DNA of 64,000 bases from Acidobacteriota bacterium (GTDB lineage: Bacteria > Acidobacteriota > Vicinamibacteria > Vicinamibacterales > CAVVIG01). Numbering within the stretch: the stretch's first letter is position 1; every line of letters starts with the position of its first letter. The stretch lies in NCBI GenBank assembly GCA_016195265.1, contig JACPZW010000009.1, positions 1,125 to 65,124 of the forward strand, given 5' to 3'. The position numbers and the translations under genes were made by a program. Shown one piece after another: positions 4,998 through 64,000 of this stretch. The notes below the pieces were generated by a model. The model was not told the origin of the DNA, did not search any database, and worked only from the letters and a program-made list of their open reading frames with translations.

Positions 4998-7844
<2,847 letters not shown>

Positions 7845-9552: not shown

Positions 9553-9588
9553 TTGGTGGCTGGTGGCTGATGACTGGTGGCTGGTGTG
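9553..9588. repeat. GGTGGCT (CCAGCCA-family) heptad array, single arm
   Basis: The sequence ttggtggctggtggctgatgactggtggctggtgtg begins 7 nt after the stop codon of the upstream gene. Confidence 0.65.
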
Positions 9589-16434: not shown

Positions 16435-16497
16435 GTGGCTGGTGTCTGGTGGCTGGTGGCTGGGTCTTTCCAGCCCCTGGTCCCTAGCCTCCAGTCC
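16435..16497. repeat. Imperfect heptad hairpin between rplU and rpmA (GGTGGCT family)
   Basis: The arm gtggctggtgtctggtggctggtggctggg, the loop tcttt and the arm ccagcccctggtccctagcctccagtccc fill almost the whole intercistronic spacer. Confidence 0.65.
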
Positions 16498-18322: not shown

Positions 18323-19396
18323 ATGACCGACCCGTCCGACTTCGTCGCGCTGTCGCTGCTCCCCATCTGGTCCTGGCGGGAGGTGGCCGAGCGGCTCCGC
18401 GCCGGCGCCCCGCCGGCCGACATCCTCCGTCAGATCGCCGACCACCGCTGGCCCGACCAGCCGGACAGGATCCAGACCCTGCGCGCGGGCGCGCGCGACG
18501 CGCTCGCGCAGGCGGCCGCGCGCGAGATTGCACCCATCGCGTGGTCCGACGCGTCGTATCCGGTGGCGCTCACGACGATCGTTGATCCGCCGCCGGTGCT
18601 GTGGGCCCGTGGATGCCTCGGGGCGCTGAGCACGCCGTCGGTTGCGATCGTCGGCGCACGCGCGGCGTCGCCGTACGGGCTGACGGTCGCCGAGCATCTC
18701 GCCGCCGATCTTGCGGGATCAGGCGTGACGGTCGTCAGCGGTCTCGCGCGTGGCGTCGACTCGGCCGCGCACCGCGGCGCGCTGGCAGGCCGAGGGATCA
18801 CGATCGCGGTGCTCGGCTGCGGCGCCGACATCGTGTACCCGCCGGAACACGCGTCGCTGTCGCGCGACATCGAGCAGCGCGGCGCGATCGTCAGCGAGCT
18901 CGTGCCGGGAACGCCGCCGCTCCCGCCGTTCTTCCCGCAGCGCAACCGGATCATCAGCGGCCTGTCGCGCGCCGTCGTCGTGATCGAGGCGGGCGAGAAG
19001 AGCGGATCGTTGATCACCGCACGATGCGCGCTCGAGCAGGGACGTGACGTGCTGGCGGTGCCCGGCAACGTCCTGAGCGGCCGGAACCGCGGCGCTCACG
19101 GCCTCTTACGGGACGGTGCAAAGATTGTGGAGTCTGCGGACGATATCTTGGAGGAGCTGGGCATGTCGCAGGGGGACGGGAGTCGGAGTGCGATCGACGG
19201 CCGACTCCCGTGCCCCTCGACAGACCCGATTCTGGCGTGTCTGACGCCAGGTGAACCGAGCAATCTCGACGCAATCGCGGAGCGATCGGGCCTGAGTACT
19301 GCGCGGTTGCTGCCCCGGTTGTTCGAGCTCGAAATGCGCGGCGTCGTCGCGCGTGTCGGCGGCGGCCGGTTCGTCAGGGTTGACAGAACGTGCTAG
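18323..19396 (+). CDS. dprA: DNA-processing protein DprA
   Basis: Motifs include VAIVGARAASPYG, VVSGLARGVDSAAHRGAL and FPQRNRIISGLS. I chose ATG 18323, which follows GAGGTG, over the TTG at 18296. Confidence 0.9.
   Translation: MTDPSDFVALSLLPIWSWREVAERLRAGAPPADILRQIADHRWPDQPDRIQTLRAGARDALAQAAAREIAPIAWSDASYPVALTTIVDPPPVLWARGCLGALSTPSVAIVGARAASPYGLTVAEHLAADLAGSGVTVVSGLARGVDSAAHRGALAGRGITIAVLGCGADIVYPPEHASLSRDIEQRGAIVSELVPGTPPLPPFFPQRNRIISGLSRAVVVIEAGEKSGSLITARCALEQGRDVLAVPGNVLSGRNRGAHGLLRDGAKIVESADDILEELGMSQGDGSRSAIDGRLPCPSTDPILACLTPGEPSNLDAIAERSGLSTARLLPRLFELEMRGVVARVGGGRFVRVDRTC
19172..19216. repeat. Palindromic element inside dprA, with the same 15-mer as in uvrA
   Basis: GGGGACGGGAGTCGG (19172-19186), a 14-nt loop, then CCGACTCCCGTGCCCC (19201-19216). 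It is translated as GDGSRSAIDGRLPCP. Confidence 0.85.
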
Positions 19397-19407
19397 GGTA
19401 AAAAGAA

Positions 19408-19442
19408 AGTGAAAACTGAGAAGTGAGAAGTGAAAAGTGAGA
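19408..19442. repeat. One-armed purine heptad array, (AGTGARA)x5
   Basis: The units agtgaaa actgaga agtgaga agtgaaa agtgaga lie between the dprA stop codon and the topA start. Confidence 0.7.
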
Positions 19443-19457
19443 AGGCGGAAGGAATAA

Positions 19458-21929
19458 ATGGCAAAAGCGCTCGTCGTGGTCGAGTCGCCGGCGAAGGCGA
19501 AGACCATCAACAAATATCTCGGACGTGACTTCAAAGTCATCGCGTCGATGGGGCACATCCGCGATCTCCCGAAGAGCAAGCTGGGCGTGGACATCGAGAA
19601 CGACTTCATCGAGACGTATGAATCGCTCGTGTCGCGCAAGAAGGTCCTGAAGGAGCTGAAGGACGCCGCCAGGGACGCGTCGGACATCTACGTCGCGACC
19701 GACCCCGATCGCGAAGGCGAGGCGATTGGCTGGCATCTCATCGAGGAGCTCAAGGGCAAGAAGCGGAAGTTTCATCGGCTGACCTTCAACGAAATCACCA
19801 AGAAGGCGATTACCGAAGCGTTGAAGCATCCGCGCGCCATCGACGAGAAGATGGTCGACGCGCAGCGGGCCCGCCGCGTGCTCGACCGGCTGGTCGGCTA
19901 CAAGATCAGCCCGCTGCTGTGGGACAAGGTGCGCCGCGGCCTCAGCGCTGGCCGCGTGCAGTCGGTCGCCTTGAAGCTGGTCTGCGATCGCGAGCGCGAG
20001 ATCGAACGATTCGTGCCCGAGGAATACTGGCACGTGTTCGCCCGGCTGGCGGGTCCGCAGCCGCCGGAGTTCGAAGCGAAGCTGTTCAAGAAGGCCGGCG
20101 ACGCGATCCGCGTGGCGAACGAGGATCAGTCGAAGGCGATTCTCTCGGACCTCGAGCGCGCGTCGTGGGTGGTGTCCTCGGTCGCCACCAAGGAGCGCAG
20201 GCGCAACCCGGCGCCGCCCTTCATCACAAGCAAGCTGCAACAGACCGCACGCTTCCCCGTGAAGAAGACGATGATGCTGGCGCAGCAGCTCTACGAAGGC
20301 GTGGAGCTGCCCGGGCTCGGCGTCGAAGGGCCGATCGGCCTCATCACGTACATGCGCACGGACTCGGTCCGGATCGCAGACGAAGCCCTCGCGGCCGTCC
20401 GCGATCACGTCAGGACCGCGTTCGGGCCCGACTACCTGCCCGAGACCCCGAACGCCTACAAGTTGAAATCCGACGCGCAGGACGCGCACGAGGCGATTCG
20501 TCCGACGTCGATGCAGTACGACCCGGAAACCGTCCGGCCGTACCTCACGCAGGATCAGTACTCGCTCTACCGCCTGATCTGGAACCGGTTCGTCGCGTCG
20601 CAGATGACGCCGTCGACGTTCGACGAGACCACCGTCGACATCTCGGCCGCCCCACCGACAGGCTCTGAGCAGGCGGACTATGTGTTCCGCGTCAAGGGCA
20701 CCGTGCCGAAATTCGCCGGGTGGATGGCGACGTACGGTCCCGCGCAGAGCGAGGAAGAGAAGGAGCCTGTCGCGGCGCCGGAGCGCGACGCCGACGAGGA
20801 TGGCGCGGTGTCCGGCGTGCTGCCGGCGCTGGCGGAGGGCGATCGCCTGGAACTGAAAACGCTGCGGCCCGAACAGAAGTTCACGCAGCCGCCGCCGCGC
20901 TTCACGGAAGCCACGCTCGTGAAGGAGCTCGAGGAGAACGGCATCGGCCGCCCGAGCACCTATGCGTCGATCATCGGCGTCCTGCAGGACCGTGAGTACG
21001 TCCACAAAACCGAGGGCAAGTTCAAGCCGTCACAGATGGGCCTGATGATCAGCGATCTGCTCGTGAAGAGCTTCGACGACATCATCGACGTCGAGTACAC
21101 GCGCAGCCTCGAGGACGACCTCGACAAGATCGAGCAGGGCAAGACCGGCTACGCGAAGACCCTCAAGGAGTTCTACAAGAAGTTCAAGAAGGACCTGACG
21201 AAGGCCGGCAAGGAGATGATCGATCTCAAGAAGGGAATCGACATCGGCGAGGCCTGCGACAAGTGCGGCAAGCCGATGCTCAAGCGCGTCGGCAAGTTCG
21301 GCCTCTTCATCGCGTGCAGCGGATACCCGGACTGCACGAACACGCGCGAGGTCGAGGGCGCGGAGCCCGAGTCCGAGAACGGCGAGGAAGAGATCGATCC
21401 GTGCGAGAACTGCGGCAAGCCGATGGCCGTCAAGCGCGGCCGGTTCGGCCAGTTCCTCGCGTGCACGGGGTATCCCGACTGCAAGACGACGCGCAAGCTG
21501 ATCGCGACCAAGCAGGGCGGCCTCAGGGCCGCGAAGCCCGACCAGATCCTCGAGGAGCCGTGCCCGCGCTGCGGCGCCAGCCTCGTCATCAAGCAGGGCC
21601 GCTTCGGCGAGTTCACCGCGTGCACGAAGTACCCCGAGTGCAAGTACGTCAAGCACAAGACGACCGGCGTGAGGTGCCCGAAGGACGCCGACAAGGGCGG
21701 TGACGTCGTCGAGCGCAAGTCGCGCCGCGGGAAGATCTTCTTCGGCTGCTCGAACTATCCCGATTGCGACTTCGTGCTGTGGAACCGGCCGGTCGCGGAA
21801 ACCTGCCCGAAGTGCGCGGCGCCGTACCTGGTCGAGAAGACGACGAAGAAGCACGGCCGGCAGATTCTCTGCAACAATGAGGACTGCGATTATGCGCGGT
21901 CCGAGGAACTCCCGGAATCAGCCGCCTGA
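19458..21929 (+). CDS. topA: DNA topoisomerase I
   Basis: A TOPRIM domain (LVVVESPAKAKTI), an active-site region (ITYMRTDS) and four C-terminal CxxC...C zinc ribbons. Confidence 0.97.
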   Translation: MAKALVVVESPAKAKTINKYLGRDFKVIASMGHIRDLPKSKLGVDIENDFIETYESLVSRKKVLKELKDAARDASDIYVATDPDREGEAIGWHLIEELKGKKRKFHRLTFNEITKKAITEALKHPRAIDEKMVDAQRARRVLDRLVGYKISPLLWDKVRRGLSAGRVQSVALKLVCDREREIERFVPEEYWHVFARLAGPQPPEFEAKLFKKAGDAIRVANEDQSKAILSDLERASWVVSSVATKERRRNPAPPFITSKLQQTARFPVKKTMMLAQQLYEGVELPGLGVEGPIGLITYMRTDSVRIADEALAAVRDHVRTAFGPDYLPETPNAYKLKSDAQDAHEAIRPTSMQYDPETVRPYLTQDQYSLYRLIWNRFVASQMTPSTFDETTVDISAAPPTGSEQADYVFRVKGTVPKFAGWMATYGPAQSEEEKEPVAAPERDADEDGAVSGVLPALAEGDRLELKTLRPEQKFTQPPPRFTEATLVKELEENGIGRPSTYASIIGVLQDREYVHKTEGKFKPSQMGLMISDLLVKSFDDIIDVEYTRSLEDDLDKIEQGKTGYAKTLKEFYKKFKKDLTKAGKEMIDLKKGIDIGEACDKCGKPMLKRVGKFGLFIACSGYPDCTNTREVEGAEPESENGEEEIDPCENCGKPMAVKRGRFGQFLACTGYPDCKTTRKLIATKQGGLRAAKPDQILEEPCPRCGASLVIKQGRFGEFTACTKYPECKYVKHKTTGVRCPKDADKGGDVVERKSRRGKIFFGCSNYPDCDFVLWNRPVAETCPKCAAPYLVEKTTKKHGRQILCNNEDCDYARSEELPESAA

Positions 21930-22001: not shown

Positions 22002-23444
22002 ATGATCACGATCGTTGGCGGCGGTCTCGCGGGTTCTGAAGCCGCGTGGCAGGCGGCCGAATGTGACGTTCCCGTCACGCTCCACGAGATGCGTCCGGTC
22101 CGGCCGACGGTGGTGCACAAGACGGACCGGCTCGCCGAGCTCGTCTGCAGCAACTCCTTCCGCGGCGACAAACTCGACAATGCCGTCGGCCTCCTCAAGG
22201 AGGAAATGCGACGCCTCGGGTCGCTCGTCATGCGCGCGGCGGAGGCGAGCCGCGTGCCCGCCGGCGCGGCGCTGGCCGTCGATCGCGAGCGGTTCGCCGA
22301 GACGATCACGCGCGCGATCACTAAACATCCGCGAATCACCGTGACGCGGCAGGAGGTCACGGCGATTCCGGATTCCAGCGAGCGCGCTCCGGTCATCATC
22401 GCGACAGGCCCGCTGACGTCCGACCCGCTTTCCGCGGCGATCGCCGTGCTCGTTGGCGAGCGGTATCTGTATTTCTACGACGCCATAAGCCCGATCGTCC
22501 TCGCCGAGACCATCGATCGATCGCGAGTGTTCCGCGCGTCGCGGTGGGGAAGAAGCCTTGGCCCGAAGAGCGACGTGCGGGGTGCGGAGTGCGACGTGCG
22601 GCGTACGGAGCGGGGCGACGTGGTCCCCGCGGAGCGCGTCCGGGGGGCGGGGGCCCCCGGATTGGACAATGATGGGCAGGGCGATTACCTGAATTGCCCG
22701 CTGACGCTCGACGAGTACGACCGCTTCTACAACGCGCTGGTGACGGCCGAGTCGGCGACCGTGCACGACTTCGACAAGGAGCGCTTCTTCGAAGGCTGCC
22801 TGCCGATCGAGGTGATGGCGCATCGCGGCCGCGACACGCTGCGCTTCGGTCCGATGAAGCCGGTCGGGCTCGTCGATCCGCGAACCGGGCGCGAACCGTA
22901 CGCGGCGGTGCAATTGCGCCAGGACAATCTCGCCGGCGACCATTTCAGCCTCGTCGGCTTTCAAACGCAGATCAAATGGGGCGAGCAGGCGCGCGTCCTG
23001 CGGCTGATTCCTGGTCTCGAGCAGGCGGAGTTCGTCCGCTTCGGCATGGTCCATCGCAACACCTATGTGAACGGGCCGTCGGTGCTCGACGAGACGTGGC
23101 AGGTGAGAGCGCGGCCGACGCTGTTCTTCGCAGGACAGATGTCCGGCGTCGAAGGGTACGTGGAGTCGGCGGCGTCCGGTTTAATCGCGGGGTTGAACGC
23201 CGCCGCCCTCGCGCGAGGCGAGGCGATCGCGCCTCCGCCCCGGACCACGGCCATCGGCGCGCTGGCGTATTACGTGGCGCACGCGAATCCGGCGCACTAC
23301 GAGCCGTCCAACATCACGTTCGGGATCATCCCGCCGCTGCCCCACGCGCCGCGCGGGAAGAAGCTGCGCAACCAGGCGCTCTCCGATCGCGCGCTCGCCG
23401 ACCTCGACGGCTGGATGCGATCGCGCACGCTGGTGCACCAGTGA
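22002..23444 (+). CDS. trmFO: Methylenetetrahydrofolate--tRNA-(uracil-5-)-methyltransferase
   Basis: Motifs include ITIVGGGLAGSEAAWQ, LVCSNSFR, YLNCPL and FAGQMSGVEGYVESAASG. Confidence 0.95.
   Translation: MITIVGGGLAGSEAAWQAAECDVPVTLHEMRPVRPTVVHKTDRLAELVCSNSFRGDKLDNAVGLLKEEMRRLGSLVMRAAEASRVPAGAALAVDRERFAETITRAITKHPRITVTRQEVTAIPDSSERAPVIIATGPLTSDPLSAAIAVLVGERYLYFYDAISPIVLAETIDRSRVFRASRWGRSLGPKSDVRGAECDVRRTERGDVVPAERVRGAGAPGLDNDGQGDYLNCPLTLDEYDRFYNALVTAESATVHDFDKERFFEGCLPIEVMAHRGRDTLRFGPMKPVGLVDPRTGREPYAAVQLRQDNLAGDHFSLVGFQTQIKWGEQARVLRLIPGLEQAEFVRFGMVHRNTYVNGPSVLDETWQVRARPTLFFAGQMSGVEGYVESAASGLIAGLNAAALARGEAIAPPPRTTAIGALAYYVAHANPAHYEPSNITFGIIPPLPHAPRGKKLRNQALSDRALADLDGWMRSRTLVHQ
22574..22615. 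repeat. GTGCGGN heptad array inside trmFO
   Basis: The units are cgtgcgg ggtgcgg agtgcga cgtgcgg cgtacgg agcgggg. The reverse complement of GGTGCGGAGTGCG recurs at 60455-60467. Confidence 0.7.
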
Positions 23445-24424
23445 CGCGCCATCTGAAGGCGTTCCTGCAGTTCCTCGCGCTCAATCGCAACGCGTCCGCG
23501 CACACGGTTCGCGCCTACGAGAGCGATCTCGGCCAGCTTTTCGCCTTCACGGCTGCCGCGGCGAAGACGTCCGTCGCGGACCTTCAGCCGGCGCAACTCG
23601 ATCGCCTGGCGCTGCGCGGCTTCCTCGGCGATCTGCACAAGCAGGGACAGTCACGCGCGTCGGCGGCGCGCAAGCTCGCGGCCGCCCGGACGTTTCTCAA
23701 GTACCTCCGCCGCGAAGGCGTCATCGAGGACGATCCCGGCGCGCTGGTCTCCACGCCGAAGCGGGACATCCGCATGCCGGCGCACCTGTCCGAAGGCGAG
23801 ATGTCGGCGCTGCTCGACGCGCCGGCCCTCGACAACGCGCTGGGCCGCCGCGATCGCGCGATCCTCGAGCTGTTCTACGCGTCGGGCCTGCGCGTCAGTG
23901 AGCTGGCCGGTCTCGACATCGATGACGTGAACCTGAGCGCGCGCATGGTCCGTGTGCTCGGCAAGGGCGGCAAGGAACGCATCGTCCCGTTCAACACGAG
24001 CGCGACGAAAGCGATCCGAGCCTACTTGAACGATCGCGAGCAGCTGGTGCGAGGCGGGGGTTCGAATCGTGGCGTCCGGCTTCAGCCGGACCGTCGTGGT
24101 CCGTCTAAAGGCGGACGCCACGCGGGAAACCGCGACCCGCTCTTCGTGAACTATCTTGGCCGGCGCTTGACGGTGCGGAGCATCGCGCGGCTGGTTCGGC
24201 GCTACGTCGCCGCGAGCAGCGCGCGGATGGGCATCAGTCCGCACGCCCTCCGGCATTCGTTCGCGACGCACCTGCTCCAGCGCGGCGCCGACCTGCGTGC
24301 GATCCAGGAGCTGCTTGGTCACGCGCGTCTCAGCACGACGCAGCGCTACACGCACGTGAACGCGGCGCAGCTGCTGGAGGTTTACAGGAAGTCGCACCCA
24401 CGGGCGAAGTCCACCAACGGCTAA
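23441..24424 (+). CDS. xerC: Tyrosine recombinase XerC
   Basis: N-terminal SAM-like core (FLALNRNASAHTVRAYESDL) and catalytic residues in ...RDRAILELFYASGLRVSEL...HALRHSFATHLL...LLGHARLSTTQRYTH. The GTG overlaps the trmFO stop codon (GTGA). Confidence 0.9.
   Translation: MTRHLKAFLQFLALNRNASAHTVRAYESDLGQLFAFTAAAAKTSVADLQPAQLDRLALRGFLGDLHKQGQSRASAARKLAAARTFLKYLRREGVIEDDPGALVSTPKRDIRMPAHLSEGEMSALLDAPALDNALGRRDRAILELFYASGLRVSELAGLDIDDVNLSARMVRVLGKGGKERIVPFNTSATKAIRAYLNDREQLVRGGGSNRGVRLQPDRRGPSKGGRHAGNRDPLFVNYLGRRLTVRSIARLVRRYVAASSARMGISPHALRHSFATHLLQRGADLRAIQELLGHARLSTTQRYTHVNAAQLLEVYRKSHPRAKSTNG
24068..24122. repeat. Nested palindromic (REPIN-like) element inside xerC
   Basis: CGTGGCGTCCG (24068-78) pairs with CGGACGCCACG (24112-22). 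Inner hairpins are GTCCGGC-ttca-GCCGGAC and CGGACC-gtcgt-GGTCCG. Confidence 0.7.
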
Positions 24425-28435: not shown

Positions 28436-28470
28436 CAGCCCTCAGCCCTCAGCCCTCAGCCCTCAGCCCT
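28436..28470. repeat. Perfect (CAGCCCT)x5 tandem heptad array
   Basis: Five exact units occupy most of the 47-nt gap between the kinase stop codon and the regulator start. Confidence 0.9.
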
Positions 28471-43200: not shown

Positions 43201-43293
43201 GAGTTCAGATTTCAGAGTTCAGATTTCAGATTGATTGCAGATCTTGTGACTTGCCCCTCAATCTGAAATCTGAACTCTGAATTCTGAAATCTC
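43201..43293. repeat. Long heptad hairpin, (TTCAGAK)n versus (MTCTGAA)n
   Basis: 43211-43231 is the exact complement of 43261-43281 (21 bp). Pairing extends to about 30 bp with mismatches, around a 29-nt loop. The element starts at the first base after the upstream stop codon. Confidence 0.9.
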
Positions 43294-60329: not shown

Positions 60330-60470
60330 CGGGGTGCTACGTGCTCCGCACGAGGCCCTTCGCACCTCGCACTTCGGCACCAGGCACAGCACCACGCACC
60401 TCGGCACCAGGCACAGAGCACCACGCACCTCGGCACCAGGCACGGCACCCAGCACCTCCGCACTCCGCAC
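60330..60470. repeat. GTGC-periodic repeat block containing an approximately 29-nt tandem repeat x3
   Basis: The 29-nt units are about 60361-60389, 60390-60417 and 60418-60446 (cacgcacctcggcaccaggcaca...). They are flanked by gtgcggggtgc (60328-60338, just overlapping the listed start) and ccgcactccgcaccc. Confidence 0.75.
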
Positions 60471-60473
60471 CCG

Positions 60474-61154
60474 TCACGACTTGCTCAACATGTATTGCAC
60501 CACCTGCATCAAATCAAATCCCGCGTGACTGACCAGCGGCGCGACGCACGATCGGCGGCGCAGGTAGAGCGCGCCCCAGAATGCGCCCAGGAGTCCCGTC
60601 GCGATCGCGGCGTCCGCGCCCTGCAGCAGGTGGCCGGCGCCGAACGCCAGGCTCGTCACCAGCACGCCCACGGTGCCGCCGCCGAGCCAGACGTCGAAGC
60701 GGTGCAGCAGGAAGGCGCGCTGAATCTCCTCCCGCAGGCCGCCGGCGACGAAGACGACGAACGCGAACAGCCACGCGTCACGCGGCGATCGCAGCAGCTC
60801 CTGCAGCGGGTTGTGTTCGACGGTGCGCAGCCACGGCGCGAAGTGCCGGATCCCGAGCAGGACGATCCCGCCGAGCGTGAGCGCCACGAGAATCAGCGGC
60901 ACGCCGAGCGCGAATTCCCGCGCCACCGGACGGCGGCCCAGCAGGACGTCGCGCGGCCGCTCGCCGTGGGCGTAGAGAAACAGCAGCACCAGCCCGATGA
61001 GCGCCGCCGAGTCGGCGACCGATAGCCACACGACGTAGCCGAGGCGCAGCTGCCCCGGCGCGGTGAAGGGCGTGTACCCGAACGCGCTGAACGTCGCACC
61101 GATCGCGAGCTGCGTCGGGAAGTCCGAGCAGAGGAGGACCTCAATGATGGCCAC
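60474..61154 (-). CDS. CPBP-family intramembrane glutamic endopeptidase (CAAX protease-like)
   Basis: Motifs include GGLREEIQRAFL, LAFGAGHLL and a downstream H. I chose the GTG at 61154. The alternative GTG at 61253 would add 33 aa encoded entirely by repeats. Confidence 0.75.
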   Translation of the reverse strand: MAIIEVLLCSDFPTQLAIGATFSAFGYTPFTAPGQLRLGYVVWLSVADSAALIGLVLLFLYAHGERPRDVLLGRRPVAREFALGVPLILVALTLGGIVLLGIRHFAPWLRTVEHNPLQELLRSPRDAWLFAFVVFVAGGLREEIQRAFLLHRFDVWLGGGTVGVLVTSLAFGAGHLLQGADAAIATGLLGAFWGALYLRRRSCVAPLVSHAGFDLMQVVQYMLSKS

Positions 61155-61160
61155 AATGCG

Positions 61161-61306
61161 GTGACTGGTGGCTGGTGGCTGGTGGCTGGTGGACGGCGAA
61201 GAGGGCTGCGGGCTGGAGGGCTGAGGGCCCTGGGAGTCCGAGTCGTTGAGCACGGCGCAAGCGTAACCGATTGTTGTCAGCCCTCAGCCCTCCGCTCTCA
61301 GCCCTT
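61161..61306. repeat. Composite repeat: a GGTGGCT array plus inverted AGGGCTG/CAGCCCT arms
   Basis: The first part is gtgactggtggctggtggctggtggctggtgg (61161-92). Then gagggctgcgggctggagggctgagggccctggg (61201-34) faces cagccctcagccctccgctctcagccctt (61278-306). Confidence 0.8.
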
Positions 61307-61322
61307 GAGTGATAATTACCGC

Positions 61323-62717
<1,395 letters not shown>

Positions 62718-62795
62718 GTGGCTGGTGACTGGTGACTGGTGGCTGGAAATACCGCCATTGAGCCCTCAGCCACTAGCCACCAGCCACTAGCCACC
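62718..62795. repeat. GGTGGCT/CCAGCCA-family hairpin between the regulator stop codon and the kinase start codon
   Basis: The arm ggtggctggtgactggtgactggtggctg (62718-46) faces cagccactagccaccagccactagccacc (62767-95), with about 4 mismatches in 29. Confidence 0.78.
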
Positions 62796-64000
62796 ATGCG
62801 TCTGGGCATCAAAGGCAAACAAGTCCTCGGCGTCACGTCGATTGTCGGCGTCGTCGTCGTCGTGCTGAGCGTGCTGCAGCTGGCCGAGCTGGCGAGCGTC
62901 AGCCTCGAGGAGAGCCGGGCACGCGCCGAGCTGCTGGCCAACGCGGTCTACCAGCGCGCGCGTGAAGTCGTTTCGGTTGGCGGCGATCCGTACGATGCGC
63001 TCCGCCGCGATCCGGGGCTGCGGTCGATCCTCGAGTCGAGCGCGTACTCCAAGCACGTCACCTTCGCCGCCATTATCGACGTCCGCGGCGTCGCGGTCGC
63101 GCACGCCGACGCCGCGCTCGAAGGCCGCGCGCTGCCGGGCGGCGAGGACATCGCGCCGCTACTCGGCCGTTCAGCCGTCGCGCAGCTCGCCGCGGTCTAC
63201 CGCGGTCCCGGCCGCACGCTGGAGTGGCGCCAGCCGCTGCTGCTCGGCGACACCGAGTTCGGATCCATCCGCGTCGGCATCTCGACGCTGCTGATTCGCG
63301 CCGATCTCGACACGTCGCTGCGCCCCGCGCTCTGGACCGCGCTCGCCGCGCTCGCCATCGCCGTGATTGGCGCGATGCTGCTCGCGCAGATCCTGCTCCG
63401 GCCGATTCACGTGATCGCGAGCGGGCTGACCCGCCTCGGCCGCGGCGAGTTCGGCGTCCGCCTGGATCTCGATCCGCGCGACGAGTTCGGCGAGATCGGC
63501 GCGCACTTCAACGCGGTCAGCGATCAGCTTCTGGCCGATCGGTCCGGCGCCGCGCCGCTCGATCCCGCGAGCCAGGAGCAGGCCGCCGTCCGCTACGCGC
63601 GCAAGCTGACCGCGCTCGGCCGGCTGTCGGCCGGCGTCGCGCACGAGGTGAAGAATCCGCTCAATGCGATGACGATTCATCTCGAGCTCCTGCGCCAGCA
63701 GCTCGCGGCGGCGGGCGACGCCGGCGCGCCGGCGCGGGTGCACGCGGACGTCATCGCCAACGAGATCCGCCGGCTCGACGAGGTCGTGCAGAGCTTTCTG
63801 AAGTTCGCGCGGCCCGAGGATCTGAAGCTGGAACGCGTCAGGCTGGCGCCGCTGCTCGACGAAGTGCGGACCGTCGTCCAGCCCGAGGCCGAGCGCCGCG
63901 GCGTCACGATCGCCATCGACGGCCGCGCCGCGCCCGACGTCACCGGCGACCCGACGCTCCTGCGGCAGGCGTTCCTCAATCTGGCGCTGAATGCCTGTCA
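62796..64000 (+). CDS. Membrane sensor histidine kinase (two transmembrane segments, HAMP, HisKA); 3' end outside the window; absent from the ORF track
   Basis: My own translation from ATG 62796 is open to the window end. It reads MRLGIKGKQVLGVTSIVGVVVVVLSVL..., then a HAMP domain (LRPIHVIASGLTRLGRGEFGVRLD) and an H-box (GVAHEVKNPLNAM). Confidence 0.85.
   Translation, partial: MRLGIKGKQVLGVTSIVGVVVVVLSVLQLAELASVSLEESRARAELLANAVYQRAREVVSVGGDPYDALRRDPGLRSILESSAYSKHVTFAAIIDVRGVAVAHADAALEGRALPGGEDIAPLLGRSAVAQLAAVYRGPGRTLEWRQPLLLGDTEFGSIRVGISTLLIRADLDTSLRPALWTALAALAIAVIGAMLLAQILLRPIHVIASGLTRLGRGEFGVRLDLDPRDEFGEIGAHFNAVSDQLLADRSGAAPLDPASQEQAAVRYARKLTALGRLSAGVAHEVKNPLNAMTIHLELLRQQLAAAGDAGAPARVHADVIANEIRRLDEVVQSFLKFARPEDLKLERVRLAPLLDEVRTVVQPEAERRGVTIAIDGRAAPDVTGDPTLLRQAFLNLALNAC

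Follow-up and report, generated by a model that had tools for sequence, protein, structure and literature searches.

The trmFO gene of the window (the whole 64,000-nucleotide stretch of acidobacterial DNA analysed here) carries an in-frame insert of 41 codons relative to Thermus thermophilus TrmFO (22557..22679, plus strand; residues 186-226; peptide LGPKSDVRGAECDVRRTERGDVVPAERVRGAGAPGLDNDGQ), and this insert is very probably a tolerated and largely unconstrained surface loop of a functional enzyme, built from repeats that are active throughout the genome. The original prediction had described a heptad-repeat-derived insertion of about 35 extra residues, although it listed 43. The insert is real, measures 41 aa by HMMER and contains two repeat-derived parts, but its flanks are native and the heptads account for only about 42 nt of it (22575-22616).

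TrmFO is a cytoplasmic housekeeping tRNA modifier that methylates U54 of tRNA using CH2-THF and FADH2. The trmFO coding sequence of the window (22002..23444, plus strand) is intact and lies in a conserved topA-trmFO-xerC context. Its 480-aa product has the FAD-binding motif GGGLAGSEAA, the N-terminal FAD-binding GxGxxG motif being IVGGGLAGSEAA (residues 4-15), and the catalytic cysteines C49 and C266. The product matched Pfam GIDA with an E value of 1.3e-93 and scored well above the cut-offs of two NCBIfam equivalogs (NF003739, 636.4 bits against 262; TIGR00137, 597.3 bits against 428.65), whereas the MnmG profile, with its cut-off of 525 bits, gave only 66. Comparison with T. thermophilus TrmFO (3g5q) gave an E value of 7.5e-139, and in the HMMER alignment C49 and C266 pair with C51 and C223 of the Thermus enzyme. 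Both cysteines are invariant in the 107-sequence alignment A2; in B. subtilis numbering they presumably correspond to C53 and C226. An AF2 model built on a diverse alignment (me368eb718c06) had a mean pLDDT of 91.3 and a pTM of 0.89, and its top Foldseek matches were 3g5s, 3g5q and 3g5r (E 2e-53). This model supersedes an earlier AF2 run on a shallow alignment of close relatives (A1), in which the entire insertion domain had a pLDDT below 50. The modelled core is intact and is predicted to fold like T. thermophilus TrmFO, and profile scores together with the model assign the product to the TrmFO class of folate/FAD-dependent tRNA m5U54 methyltransferases.

The HMMER match to the Thermus protein is split, with query residues 2-185 aligned to 4-183 and residues 227-473 to 184-429, so that Ser183 and Ala184, neighbours in the solved enzyme, directly border the insert; in T. 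thermophilus and B. subtilis the linker at this place has 5-6 residues. Residues 189-220 form the sole segment of the AF2 model with a pLDDT below 50, and no secondary structure was predicted for residues 184-228, as for a disordered surface loop. The original prediction gave only a few residues at this place in Bacillus, in agreement with the 5-7 residues found between R[YWF] and YxNCP in 72 of 108 diverse TrmFO representatives. Conservation in distant TrmFO proteins had been named as the observation that would count against a repeat-derived insertion. The Thermus protein 3g5q has no insert, and a Vicinamibacteria TrmFO of 58% identity (L110) has 6 residues at the site; the insert is repeat-derived and unconserved at a distance, and this objection does not apply.

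The two ends of the insert differ from its interior. The N-terminal flank RSLGP (22551..22565, plus strand) is conserved across Vicinamibacterales and, according to the loop catalogues, is not repeat-derived. The C-terminal flank (G)LDNDGQ (22659..22679, plus strand), common to the congener G002, occupies the place of the ACGVDDG[EQ] of most relatives, the cysteine being lost in the TrmFO of the window. The usual form of the loop extension in the order is RS[LF][RG]P...ACG[VAI]DDG[EQ]G, which is likewise not repeat-derived, and the insert ends (RSLGP..., ...DNDGQG) are part of this order-wide extension. The predicted tryptic peptide following VR in the insert begins GAGAPGLDNDGQGDYLNCPL.

Other kinds of element were considered for the insert. 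An intein or intron was rejected, the insert being too short and free of motifs, with a continuous reading frame. A role as an RNA regulator or terminator was rejected because the insert, given its composition, has an ordinary folding energy (z = -0.81 against shuffles), Rfam gave no match for it and no terminator- or promoter-like site was found in 22300-22900. No canonical G-quadruplex was found in the insert, whose G-tracts lie 25-29 nt apart; among the other arrays of the genome, the perfect (GGGGTGC)n ones would count as G4.

The first repeat-derived part is an array of six GTGCGGN heptads (22575..22616, plus strand), comprising five good units (GTGCGGG at 22575-81, GTGCGGA at 82-88, GTGCGAC at 89-95, GTGCGGC at 96-102 and GTACGGA at 103-109) and a degenerate one (GCGGGGC at 110-116). 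The array had been placed one base earlier, at 22574-22615. TRF analysis of the insert gave a period of 7 (5.1 copies, 79% matches) and a period of 21 (2.0 copies, 90% matches), the latter defining two 21-nt tandem units at 22570..22610 on the plus strand. Three heptads make 21 nt, that is, seven codons, and are read here as VRGAECD and VRRTERG; the general reading of the unit is VRGAxCx, with VRGAGCE and similar peptides in relatives. In one clade of 99% support, the 21-nt unit is present once in the congener G002/L002, twice in the window, twice in L003 and about seven times in P0004. Organisation and variation in these 21-nt steps keep the array in frame. Native codons of the form ...GCG TGC GGN GTG... 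(A-C-G-V) are already heptad-like, and in L003 they are in phase with the array.

The genome search for the heptad family proposed in the original prediction bore it out: GTGCGG-like arrays of at least three heptads were found at 19 loci in the 4.5-Mb genome and at none in a reversed-sequence control. The strict GTGCGGN pattern, with one mismatch allowed, gave 23 matches in G000. Arrays of this kind are therefore commoner in the genome than chance gives. The genome has more tandem arrays of period 7 than of any other period (465 with a score of at least 40), and 84% of the period-7 arrays are intergenic, compared to about 25% of random segments. One such region in the window is a GTGC/GCAC heptad-periodic intergenic block of the same unit family (60330..60475, minus strand). 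The complement of GGTGCGGAGTGCG does recur in this block, at 60459-60471, four bases away from the predicted 60455-60467. The array at 22575-22616 and the block near 60460 belong to one heptad family, with no specific copy relationship between them. Head-to-tail units, a family present elsewhere in the genome and copy-number differences among relatives place the array with heptanucleotide SSRs/VNTRs.

The second repeat-derived part is a copy of a dispersed double-hairpin element, named here the GAPG element (22606..22670, plus strand; BLAST core 22606-22661), which is read as ERGDVVPAERVRGAGAPGLDN. Its first dyad, CGGGG..CCCCG (cggggcgacgtggtccccg; 22611..22629, plus strand), has a 5-bp stem. 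The second hairpin, TCCGGGGG-GCGGGGG-CCCCCGGA (22639..22661, plus strand), has an 8-bp stem whose 8-nt arms (22639-46/22654-61) are 100% complementary, and conservation within the family is highest here; the palindrome ccggggggcgggggcccccgg spans 22640-22660. A further arm pair, GGTCCCCGC/GCGGGGGCC, was found in the insert. The GC palindromes cggggcgacgtggtccccg and ccggggggcgggggcccccgg of the original prediction are thus present, not as loose palindromes but as a copy of a dispersed element of 56-65 nt. The best other copy in the genome lies on another contig (C34:6132-6187) with 93% identity over 56 nt (BLAST, E 4.8e-16), and nhmmer gave a family of about 12 copies. The copies are mostly intragenic, with the peptide ..RGAGAPGV.., and 9 of the 12 are in sense orientation, reading ..GAPG.. 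within high-GC3 ORFs. The other copies are located in linkers and loops of unrelated genes, mostly in one common reading frame; by Pfam, the hosts include S9 peptidases, an acyl-CoA dehydrogenase, and the linkers of an E2 acyltransferase and of a sulfatase-TPR protein.

The GAPG element is mostly confined to genus g1, with 5, 5 and 10 BLAST matches in its three genomes. Empty sites occur within the genus: L003/P0003 and P0005-P0008 have no element and keep ACGVDDG. A GAPG-type element was also seen, in protein form, at the same site of a more distant TrmFO (P0110). Dispersed copies, a hairpin and empty-site orthologues give the element the properties of REP/RPE-like repeats. The GTAG/CGTC terminal tag, which marks two REP superfamilies, is absent from it, and no cognate RAYT (Y1) transposase flanked by the GAPG element was found in the genome. 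Only one Y1 transposase is present (C37:131679-132002), and the repeats flanking it (8 + 4 copies) belong to the main GGGTCC..GGACCC REP of the genome (GTAGGSCGGGTCC..GGACCCGSC), which does bear the terminal tag. Membership in the uvrA/dprA hairpin family was rejected, the hairpin at 6683-6746 and 19172-19216 having the arms GGGGACGGGAGTCGG / CCGACTCCCGTCCCC, unrelated to the GAPG element.

Comparison of 108 loci from Vicinamibacterales (about 100 species) showed that the loop is the dominant indel hotspot of trmFO across the order. The loop has 6-68 residues (median 33), and the standard deviation of insert length is 11.5 aa at the loop and at most 4.8 anywhere else in TrmFO. Tandem repeats occur in 28 of 96 unique loops, with periods of 7, 14 and 21 the commonest (12 loops), and perfect hairpins of at least 8 bp in 21 of the 96, compared to 2.7 in codon shuffles and 3 of 190 other parts of trmFO. 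The results also showed that the repeat type in the loop tracks the repeat family abundant in the same genome. GTGCGGN arrays are abundant in G000, G001, G002, G005 and G013 only, and VRGA-type heptads are found in the loop in four of the five array-rich genomes compared to 1 of 25 others; similarly, genomes with the REP hairpin GTCCGSCTKMAGSCGGAC in the loop have 42-155 copies of it, and controls have none. Between close relatives, loop content and length are unrelated. Outside the loop, the DNA of P0004 is 97-100% identical to that of P0009, but the loop itself holds a heptad array in one of the two and a GTAG-REP doublet in the other. The loop of the window is a mosaic, its 5' part resembling P0003 and P0004 and its 3' part P0002. 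Between the window and G002, pS is 0.13 in the loop and 0.42 in the remainder of the gene. Constraint on the loop core is relaxed, with a pooled pN/pS of 0.48 there and of 0.19 in the remainder of the gene.

These repeats could reach the protein in the following way. The loop would take up any repeats that happen to be active in the genome, and change by slippage, insertion and recombination. The heptad array may have been seeded in situ from the native A-C-G-V codons or imported; its copy number would then shift by replication slippage, with selection purging length changes other than multiples of 21 nt. The hairpin element probably came in by insertion, and loop alleles may pass between lineages via short-patch homologous recombination. 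The resulting peptide would have no specific function and would be merely harmless at the TrmFO site.

Two readings give the loop a more active part than the tolerated surface loop preferred here. One, which we consider rather unlikely, is that the loop is a preferred landing and exchange site, a "safe harbour", for several unrelated repeat families, beyond a passive sink. The conserved heptad-like ...GCG TGC GGN GTG... codons and the nearby hairpins would then nucleate arrays and draw insertions, entire loop cassettes would be exchanged among co-occurring strains through recombination, and non-triplet microsatellites, filtered to 21-nt steps, would regularly supply new peptide to conserved enzymes. 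The strong frame and orientation bias of the GAPG element could point beyond passive tolerance. The other reading, an adaptive loop, is unlikely: an Arg/Gly-rich flexible arm would aid tRNA or partner binding or tune activity, and its variability would be selected diversity. It is favoured by the basal extension, whose motif RSLGP...ACGVDDGEG is conserved throughout the order, so that the site is not functionally empty. Moreover, the pooled pN/pS of the loop core (0.48) is below 1, and of the six differences that separate the window from G002 in the hairpin part, five are synonymous; these two observations stand as a counterpoint to a neutral loop, with some constraint on the peptide or the DNA hairpin possible. 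[quoted passage not shown] However, an adaptive role is at odds with a length of 6-68 residues and a content unrelated between close relatives, with unrelated cassettes in near-identical strains, with the predicted disorder, and with the 5-7 residues that suffice in most TrmFO proteins. Loop content also mirrors the DNA repeat abundant in the genome, which fits a cause at the DNA level rather than at the protein level.

A phase-variation (contingency) switch, in which gain or loss of a single 7-nt unit toggles the trmFO frame, is very improbable. A unit of 7 nt cannot be divided into whole codons, and heptad arrays are generally slippage-prone, heptanucleotide SSRs being the top class in SSR-rich bacteria (Mrazek 2007, as cited in PMC4679880). 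Nevertheless, the tract is imperfect (79% matches) and slippage is thereby suppressed; all length differences among relatives are in frame, in 21-nt steps within genus g1; and the gene encodes a housekeeping tRNA modifier in a conserved context. No out-of-frame allele was found across the loop at any of the 108 loci, a count to be read with the bias of protein databases towards intact ORFs, so that rare off-alleles are possible. The combination typical of a contingency locus, a perfect tract together with out-of-frame alleles, is thus not seen here. It is hardly credible that the insert arose as an artefact of assembly or binning, with repeats mis-joined inside the gene of a metagenome-assembled genome. 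The assembly is a draft (87 contigs) in which repeats abound, but the reading frame is kept, an independent assembly of a congener (the groundwater MAG G002/L031) has the GAPG element at the same site with 94% identity, and heptad arrays occur at the site in several independent assemblies (L032, L121 and L007).

As a tolerated surface loop, the TrmFO insert offers a natural example of "junk" DNA repeats turned into protein sequence, including repeats of non-triplet unit length. A site that tolerates 6-68 residues of arbitrary sequence is usable for tagging or engineering the enzyme, and the loop is a fast-evolving strain marker for Vicinamibacterales, which are abundant but poorly cultured soil bacteria. 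For annotators it is a warning that low-complexity inserts of this kind, when met in conserved genes, are genuine and are neither frameshifts nor misassemblies.

The closest parallels to the GAPG element are found among palindromic repeats inside genes. Like the Rickettsia palindromic elements, to the extent that these (Ogata et al. 2000, 2002) are summarised in PMC3733652, it is a small palindromic repeat lying in frame within conserved, functional genes, adding a peptide segment at a tolerated position, with one family in unrelated genes. By the same summary, the Rickettsia elements are longer and their host is obligate intracellular, whereas the GAPG element has 56-65 nt and about 12 copies in a free-living soil acidobacterium and is joined with a microsatellite in one loop. 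GTAG- and CGTC-tagged intragenic REPs (Di Nocera, De Gregorio and Rocco 2013; PMC3733652) are likewise REP-type hairpins inside ORFs of known function, often dimers encoding 20-30 residues; from their location in modular or linker regions, those authors argued that they are neutral. In relatives of the genome, GTAG-REP doublets even occupy the TrmFO loop discussed here (P0009). Unlike these REPs, however, the GAPG element is untagged, predominantly intragenic rather than extragenic, and different from the REP family that flanks the Y1 transposase of the genome.

The heptad array resembles the heptanucleotide repeats of other bacteria, namely the LSSRs (Mrazek 2007, as far as that work is cited elsewhere), the TAACTGA repeats (PMC4679880) and the GGGNATC repeats (PMC4692102), in that tandem 7-nt arrays of a few unit families abound in the genome and are strongly over-represented between genes. 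[quoted passage not shown] As in bacterial coding VNTRs, copy number varies by whole codons, close relatives having 1, 2, 2 and about 7 of the 21-nt units, but the base unit of 7 nt is no multiple of three and the repeat lies in a housekeeping enzyme of the cytoplasm instead of a surface protein. The type of event is already known from intragenic REPs, Rickettsia palindromic elements and coding tandem repeats, but in this case one loop is rebuilt with different repeats in successive relatives.

The trmFO gene (22002-23444) follows topA (19458-21929) and precedes xerC in the window, an order known from Bacillus; the same neighbours were met again in further comparisons. The 480-aa trmFO product matched Pfam GIDA (E 1.3e-93), the NCBIfam equivalogs NF003739 (636 bits, cut-off 262) and TIGR00137 (597 bits, cut-off 428.65) and 3g5q, the T. 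thermophilus enzyme of known structure (E 7.5e-139), and by all sequence tests it is TrmFO. Its catalytic cysteines C49 and C266, aligned with C51 and C223 of the T. thermophilus enzyme, are invariant in a 107-sequence alignment with identity down to about 40%. The HMMER alignment to 3g5q was split, residues 2-185 pairing with T. thermophilus residues 4-183 and residues 227-473 with 184-429, and therefore the 41 residues 186-226 (DNA 22557-22679) are inserted between adjacent residues of the solved structure. This confirms the original prediction that TrmFO carries an insert here; the T. thermophilus enzyme has none.

AlphaFold2, run on a diverse alignment, gave a model with mean pLDDT 91.3 and pTM 0.89, in which residues 189-220 formed the sole low-confidence segment and residues 184-228 were without predicted secondary structure. 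In structure the model was closest to the three TrmFO entries of T. thermophilus (E 2e-53). On this prediction the enzyme is thus a normal one, from which the insert departs as a disordered excursion. The tRNA-binding site of TrmFO was called not known in a 2018 review (PMC5954106). A role of the insert at the RNA level found no support: its folding energy was ordinary for its composition (z = -0.81), it had no Rfam match, and no terminator-like or promoter-like site was found around it.

The insert is a composite. From 22575 the DNA reads GTGCGGG GTGCGGA GTGCGAC GTGCGGC GTACGGA GCGGGGC, for which TRF reported 5.1 copies at period 7 (79% matches) and 2.0 copies at period 21 (90% matches, 22570-22610). 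Three heptads make 21 nt, or seven codons; the frame used gives V-R-G-A-x-C-x, here DVRGAEC DVRRTER. As read off the unit, such arrays have no stop codon on either strand and are therefore translatable. The second part, from 22606 to about 22670, holds both GC palindromes and is a copy of a dispersed double-hairpin element, matched in the same genome at C34:6132-6187 (93% over 56 nt, E 4.8e-16). The RSLGP start and DNDGQG end of the insert belong to an order-wide loop extension, usually RS[LF][RG]P...ACG[VAI]DDG[EQ]G. The earlier reading of the insert as repeat-derived is therefore supported, with the hairpin copy and the order-wide ends as refinements.

Iterated nhmmer found 12 copies of the hairpin element in the genome, nine of them sense within long high-GC3 ORFs in the common frame ..(E)R.RGAGAPG(V).. 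(translated copies at L113, C34:36729-38129, and at L112, L114, L116, L117 and L118). Pfam matches showed that the copies sit in linkers or loops of real genes, among other places between the E3-binding and catalytic domains of an E2 dihydrolipoyl acyltransferase, in an inter-domain linker of a sulfatase-TPR protein, and in two S9 peptidases, an NYN/OST-HTH protein, a DUF1800 protein and an acyl-CoA dehydrogenase. With five BLAST matches in the window's own genome and five and ten in its congeners G001 and G002, the family is essentially confined to the window's genus. The element lacks a GTAG/CGTC tag, and the repeat flanking the genome's Y1 (RAYT-type) transposase is a different one. In the region C37:131200-132300 this sole Y1-transposase (RAYT/IS200-like) gene has eight copies of the main GTAG-type REP upstream and four downstream, which is a classic REPtron arrangement; the REP, GGGTCC-TTTC-GGACCC, has about 370 copies genome-wide.

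The heptads likewise recur, as a genome search for the GTGCGG family showed: arrays with three or more GTGCGG-like heptads occupied 19 loci, against none in the reversed genome, and a strict three-unit GTGCGGN pattern with one mismatch permitted gave 23 matches, against none in the control. The predicted recurrence of a 13-mer near 60460 proved real, at 60459-60471 within an intergenic GTGC-periodic block. Period 7 was the top tandem-repeat period whatever the score threshold. The genome is unusually heptanucleotide-rich, with 465 tandem arrays scoring at least 40; its main units are ACCAGCC (107 arrays), AAATCTG (85), AGCCCTC (34) and AATCCGC (33), and window examples of heptanucleotide arrays lie at 9554-9586, 16435-16463, 28436-28470, 43260-43292, 61160-61305 and 62711-62796. 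The leader immediately upstream of topA (19407-19451) is filled by purine-rich heptads, AAGTGAA AACTGAG AAGGCAG (TRF period 21). A GC3-based classifier placed 84% of heptad arrays between genes, compared with about 25% of random segments, and a translated array is therefore an exception, but not the sole one (about 75 candidate arrays in the genome).

Orthologue alignment showed that the insert is not conserved in distant TrmFO proteins, as predicted: the corresponding segment has 5-7 residues in 72 of 108 diverse representatives (40-64% identity), longer loops also forming a tail in other lineages. Among 108 Vicinamibacterales loci the loop had a median length of 33 residues (range 6-68) and is by far the chief indel site of TrmFO, with an inserted-length SD of 11.5 aa against at most 4.8 elsewhere. 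Tandem repeats were present in 28 of 96 distinct loops, with periods 7, 14 and 21 commonest (12 loops) and unit families GTGCGGN, AGCCACG, TCGTCGA and GATTCGG. Perfect hairpins of at least 8 bp occurred in 21 of the 96 loops, compared with 2.7 after codon shuffling and with 3 of 190 same-length segments elsewhere in trmFO. One frequent hairpin, GTCCGGCTGAAGCCGGAC, is read VRLKPD (reverse complement VRLQPD). Genomes of the window's family hold 39-161 copies of it each; the reversed control and two genomes of other families hold none. Abundant GTGCGGN arrays were found only in five genomes (G000, G001, G002, G005 and G013), and VRGA-type repeats occurred in the TrmFO loop of four of these five against 1 of 25 others, although three of the four belong to a single genus. 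Loop content thus mirrors the repeats of its own genome, an association weakened by relatedness.

Hairpin families with a CTTCAG/CTGAAG centre and differing stems (GTCCGGCT.., GCAGGACT.., GCAGGCCT.., GCCGGGCT.., AGGCGGACC..) were seen in nine loops (L004, L005, L006, L016, L024, L035, L061, L081 and L108) and may form a REP superfamily set by loop geometry, not stem sequence. In xerC (about 23441-24424) a REP hairpin, GTCCGGCTTCAGCCGGAC, lies in frame at 24074-24091 and is read GVRLQPD, inside a stretch lengthening the protein by about 24 residues (residues 7-323 against XerC profile 2-294); trmFO's neighbour therefore likewise bears a translated repeat. In the family member G004 (C15:153998-155371) the trmFO match is in about seven pieces in different frames with one TGA, which may reflect a pseudogene or a poor-quality assembly.

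Loop change appears rapid. In the window's clade (99% support) the loops have 19, 19, 19, 19, 30, 39, 40, 41, 46 and 71 residues. Outside the loop, the metagenome TrmFO loci P0004 and P0009 share 97-100% of their DNA sequence; the P0004 loop has about 20 heptads, the P0009 loop a GTAG-tagged REP hairpin doublet (GGGCGGAGCGAGCTCCGCCCCTAC / GTAGGGGCCGAGCTTGCTCGGCCC), and identity falls in the flanks immediately beside the loop, which fits replacement of a whole loop allele between near-identical strains. The window's loop is a mosaic: its 5' flank and heptads resemble P0003 (from G001) and P0004, while 22613-22726 resembles P0002 of G002 (identity 0.86-0.90 against 0.54-0.76) and the remaining gene is nearer P0003. 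Synonymous divergence from G002 is lower in the loop (0.13) than across the remainder of trmFO (0.42), which makes the loop segment younger than its surroundings. We read the young segment as a product of short-patch recombination; since G002 shares the derived LDNDGQ flank, we regard lineage sorting, or several insertions of near-identical copies, as less probable. Pooled over alignable pairs, pN/pS was 0.48 for the variable core of the loop, compared with 0.19 elsewhere; constraint there is relaxed, though part of it may persist.

The best-supported reading is that the TrmFO loop is a permissive site gathering any repeat DNA active in the genome. Within coding regions, the sole surviving length changes of a heptad array would be multiples of 21 nt; the 21-nt unit count is one in G002, two in the window and in G001, and about seven in P0004 (GTGCGAG GTGCGGN GKGCGAG). 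The array may have grown from trmFO's own A-C-G-V codons, which at the G001 locus (GCC GCG TGT GGC GTC) are in phase with it, or may have been imported, as the same unit also builds arrays at many unrelated intergenic sites.

The chief point of interest is the recurrent reuse of one loop with rapid, cassette-like turnover. In-frame palindromic repeats within conserved genes have been described for RPE in Rickettsia and for GTAG/CGTC REPs in many bacteria (PMC3733652), and the authors of that paper argued that intragenic repeats in modular regions are neutral; our reading is the same. Heptanucleotide-rich genomes are also already known, their repeats being described as mostly non-coding and those expected in genes as whole-codon units (PMC4679880; PMC4692102). 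The trmFO loop differs from these known systems in uniting palindromic and heptanucleotide repeats, and in keeping a 7-nt unit in frame through a 21-nt super-period.
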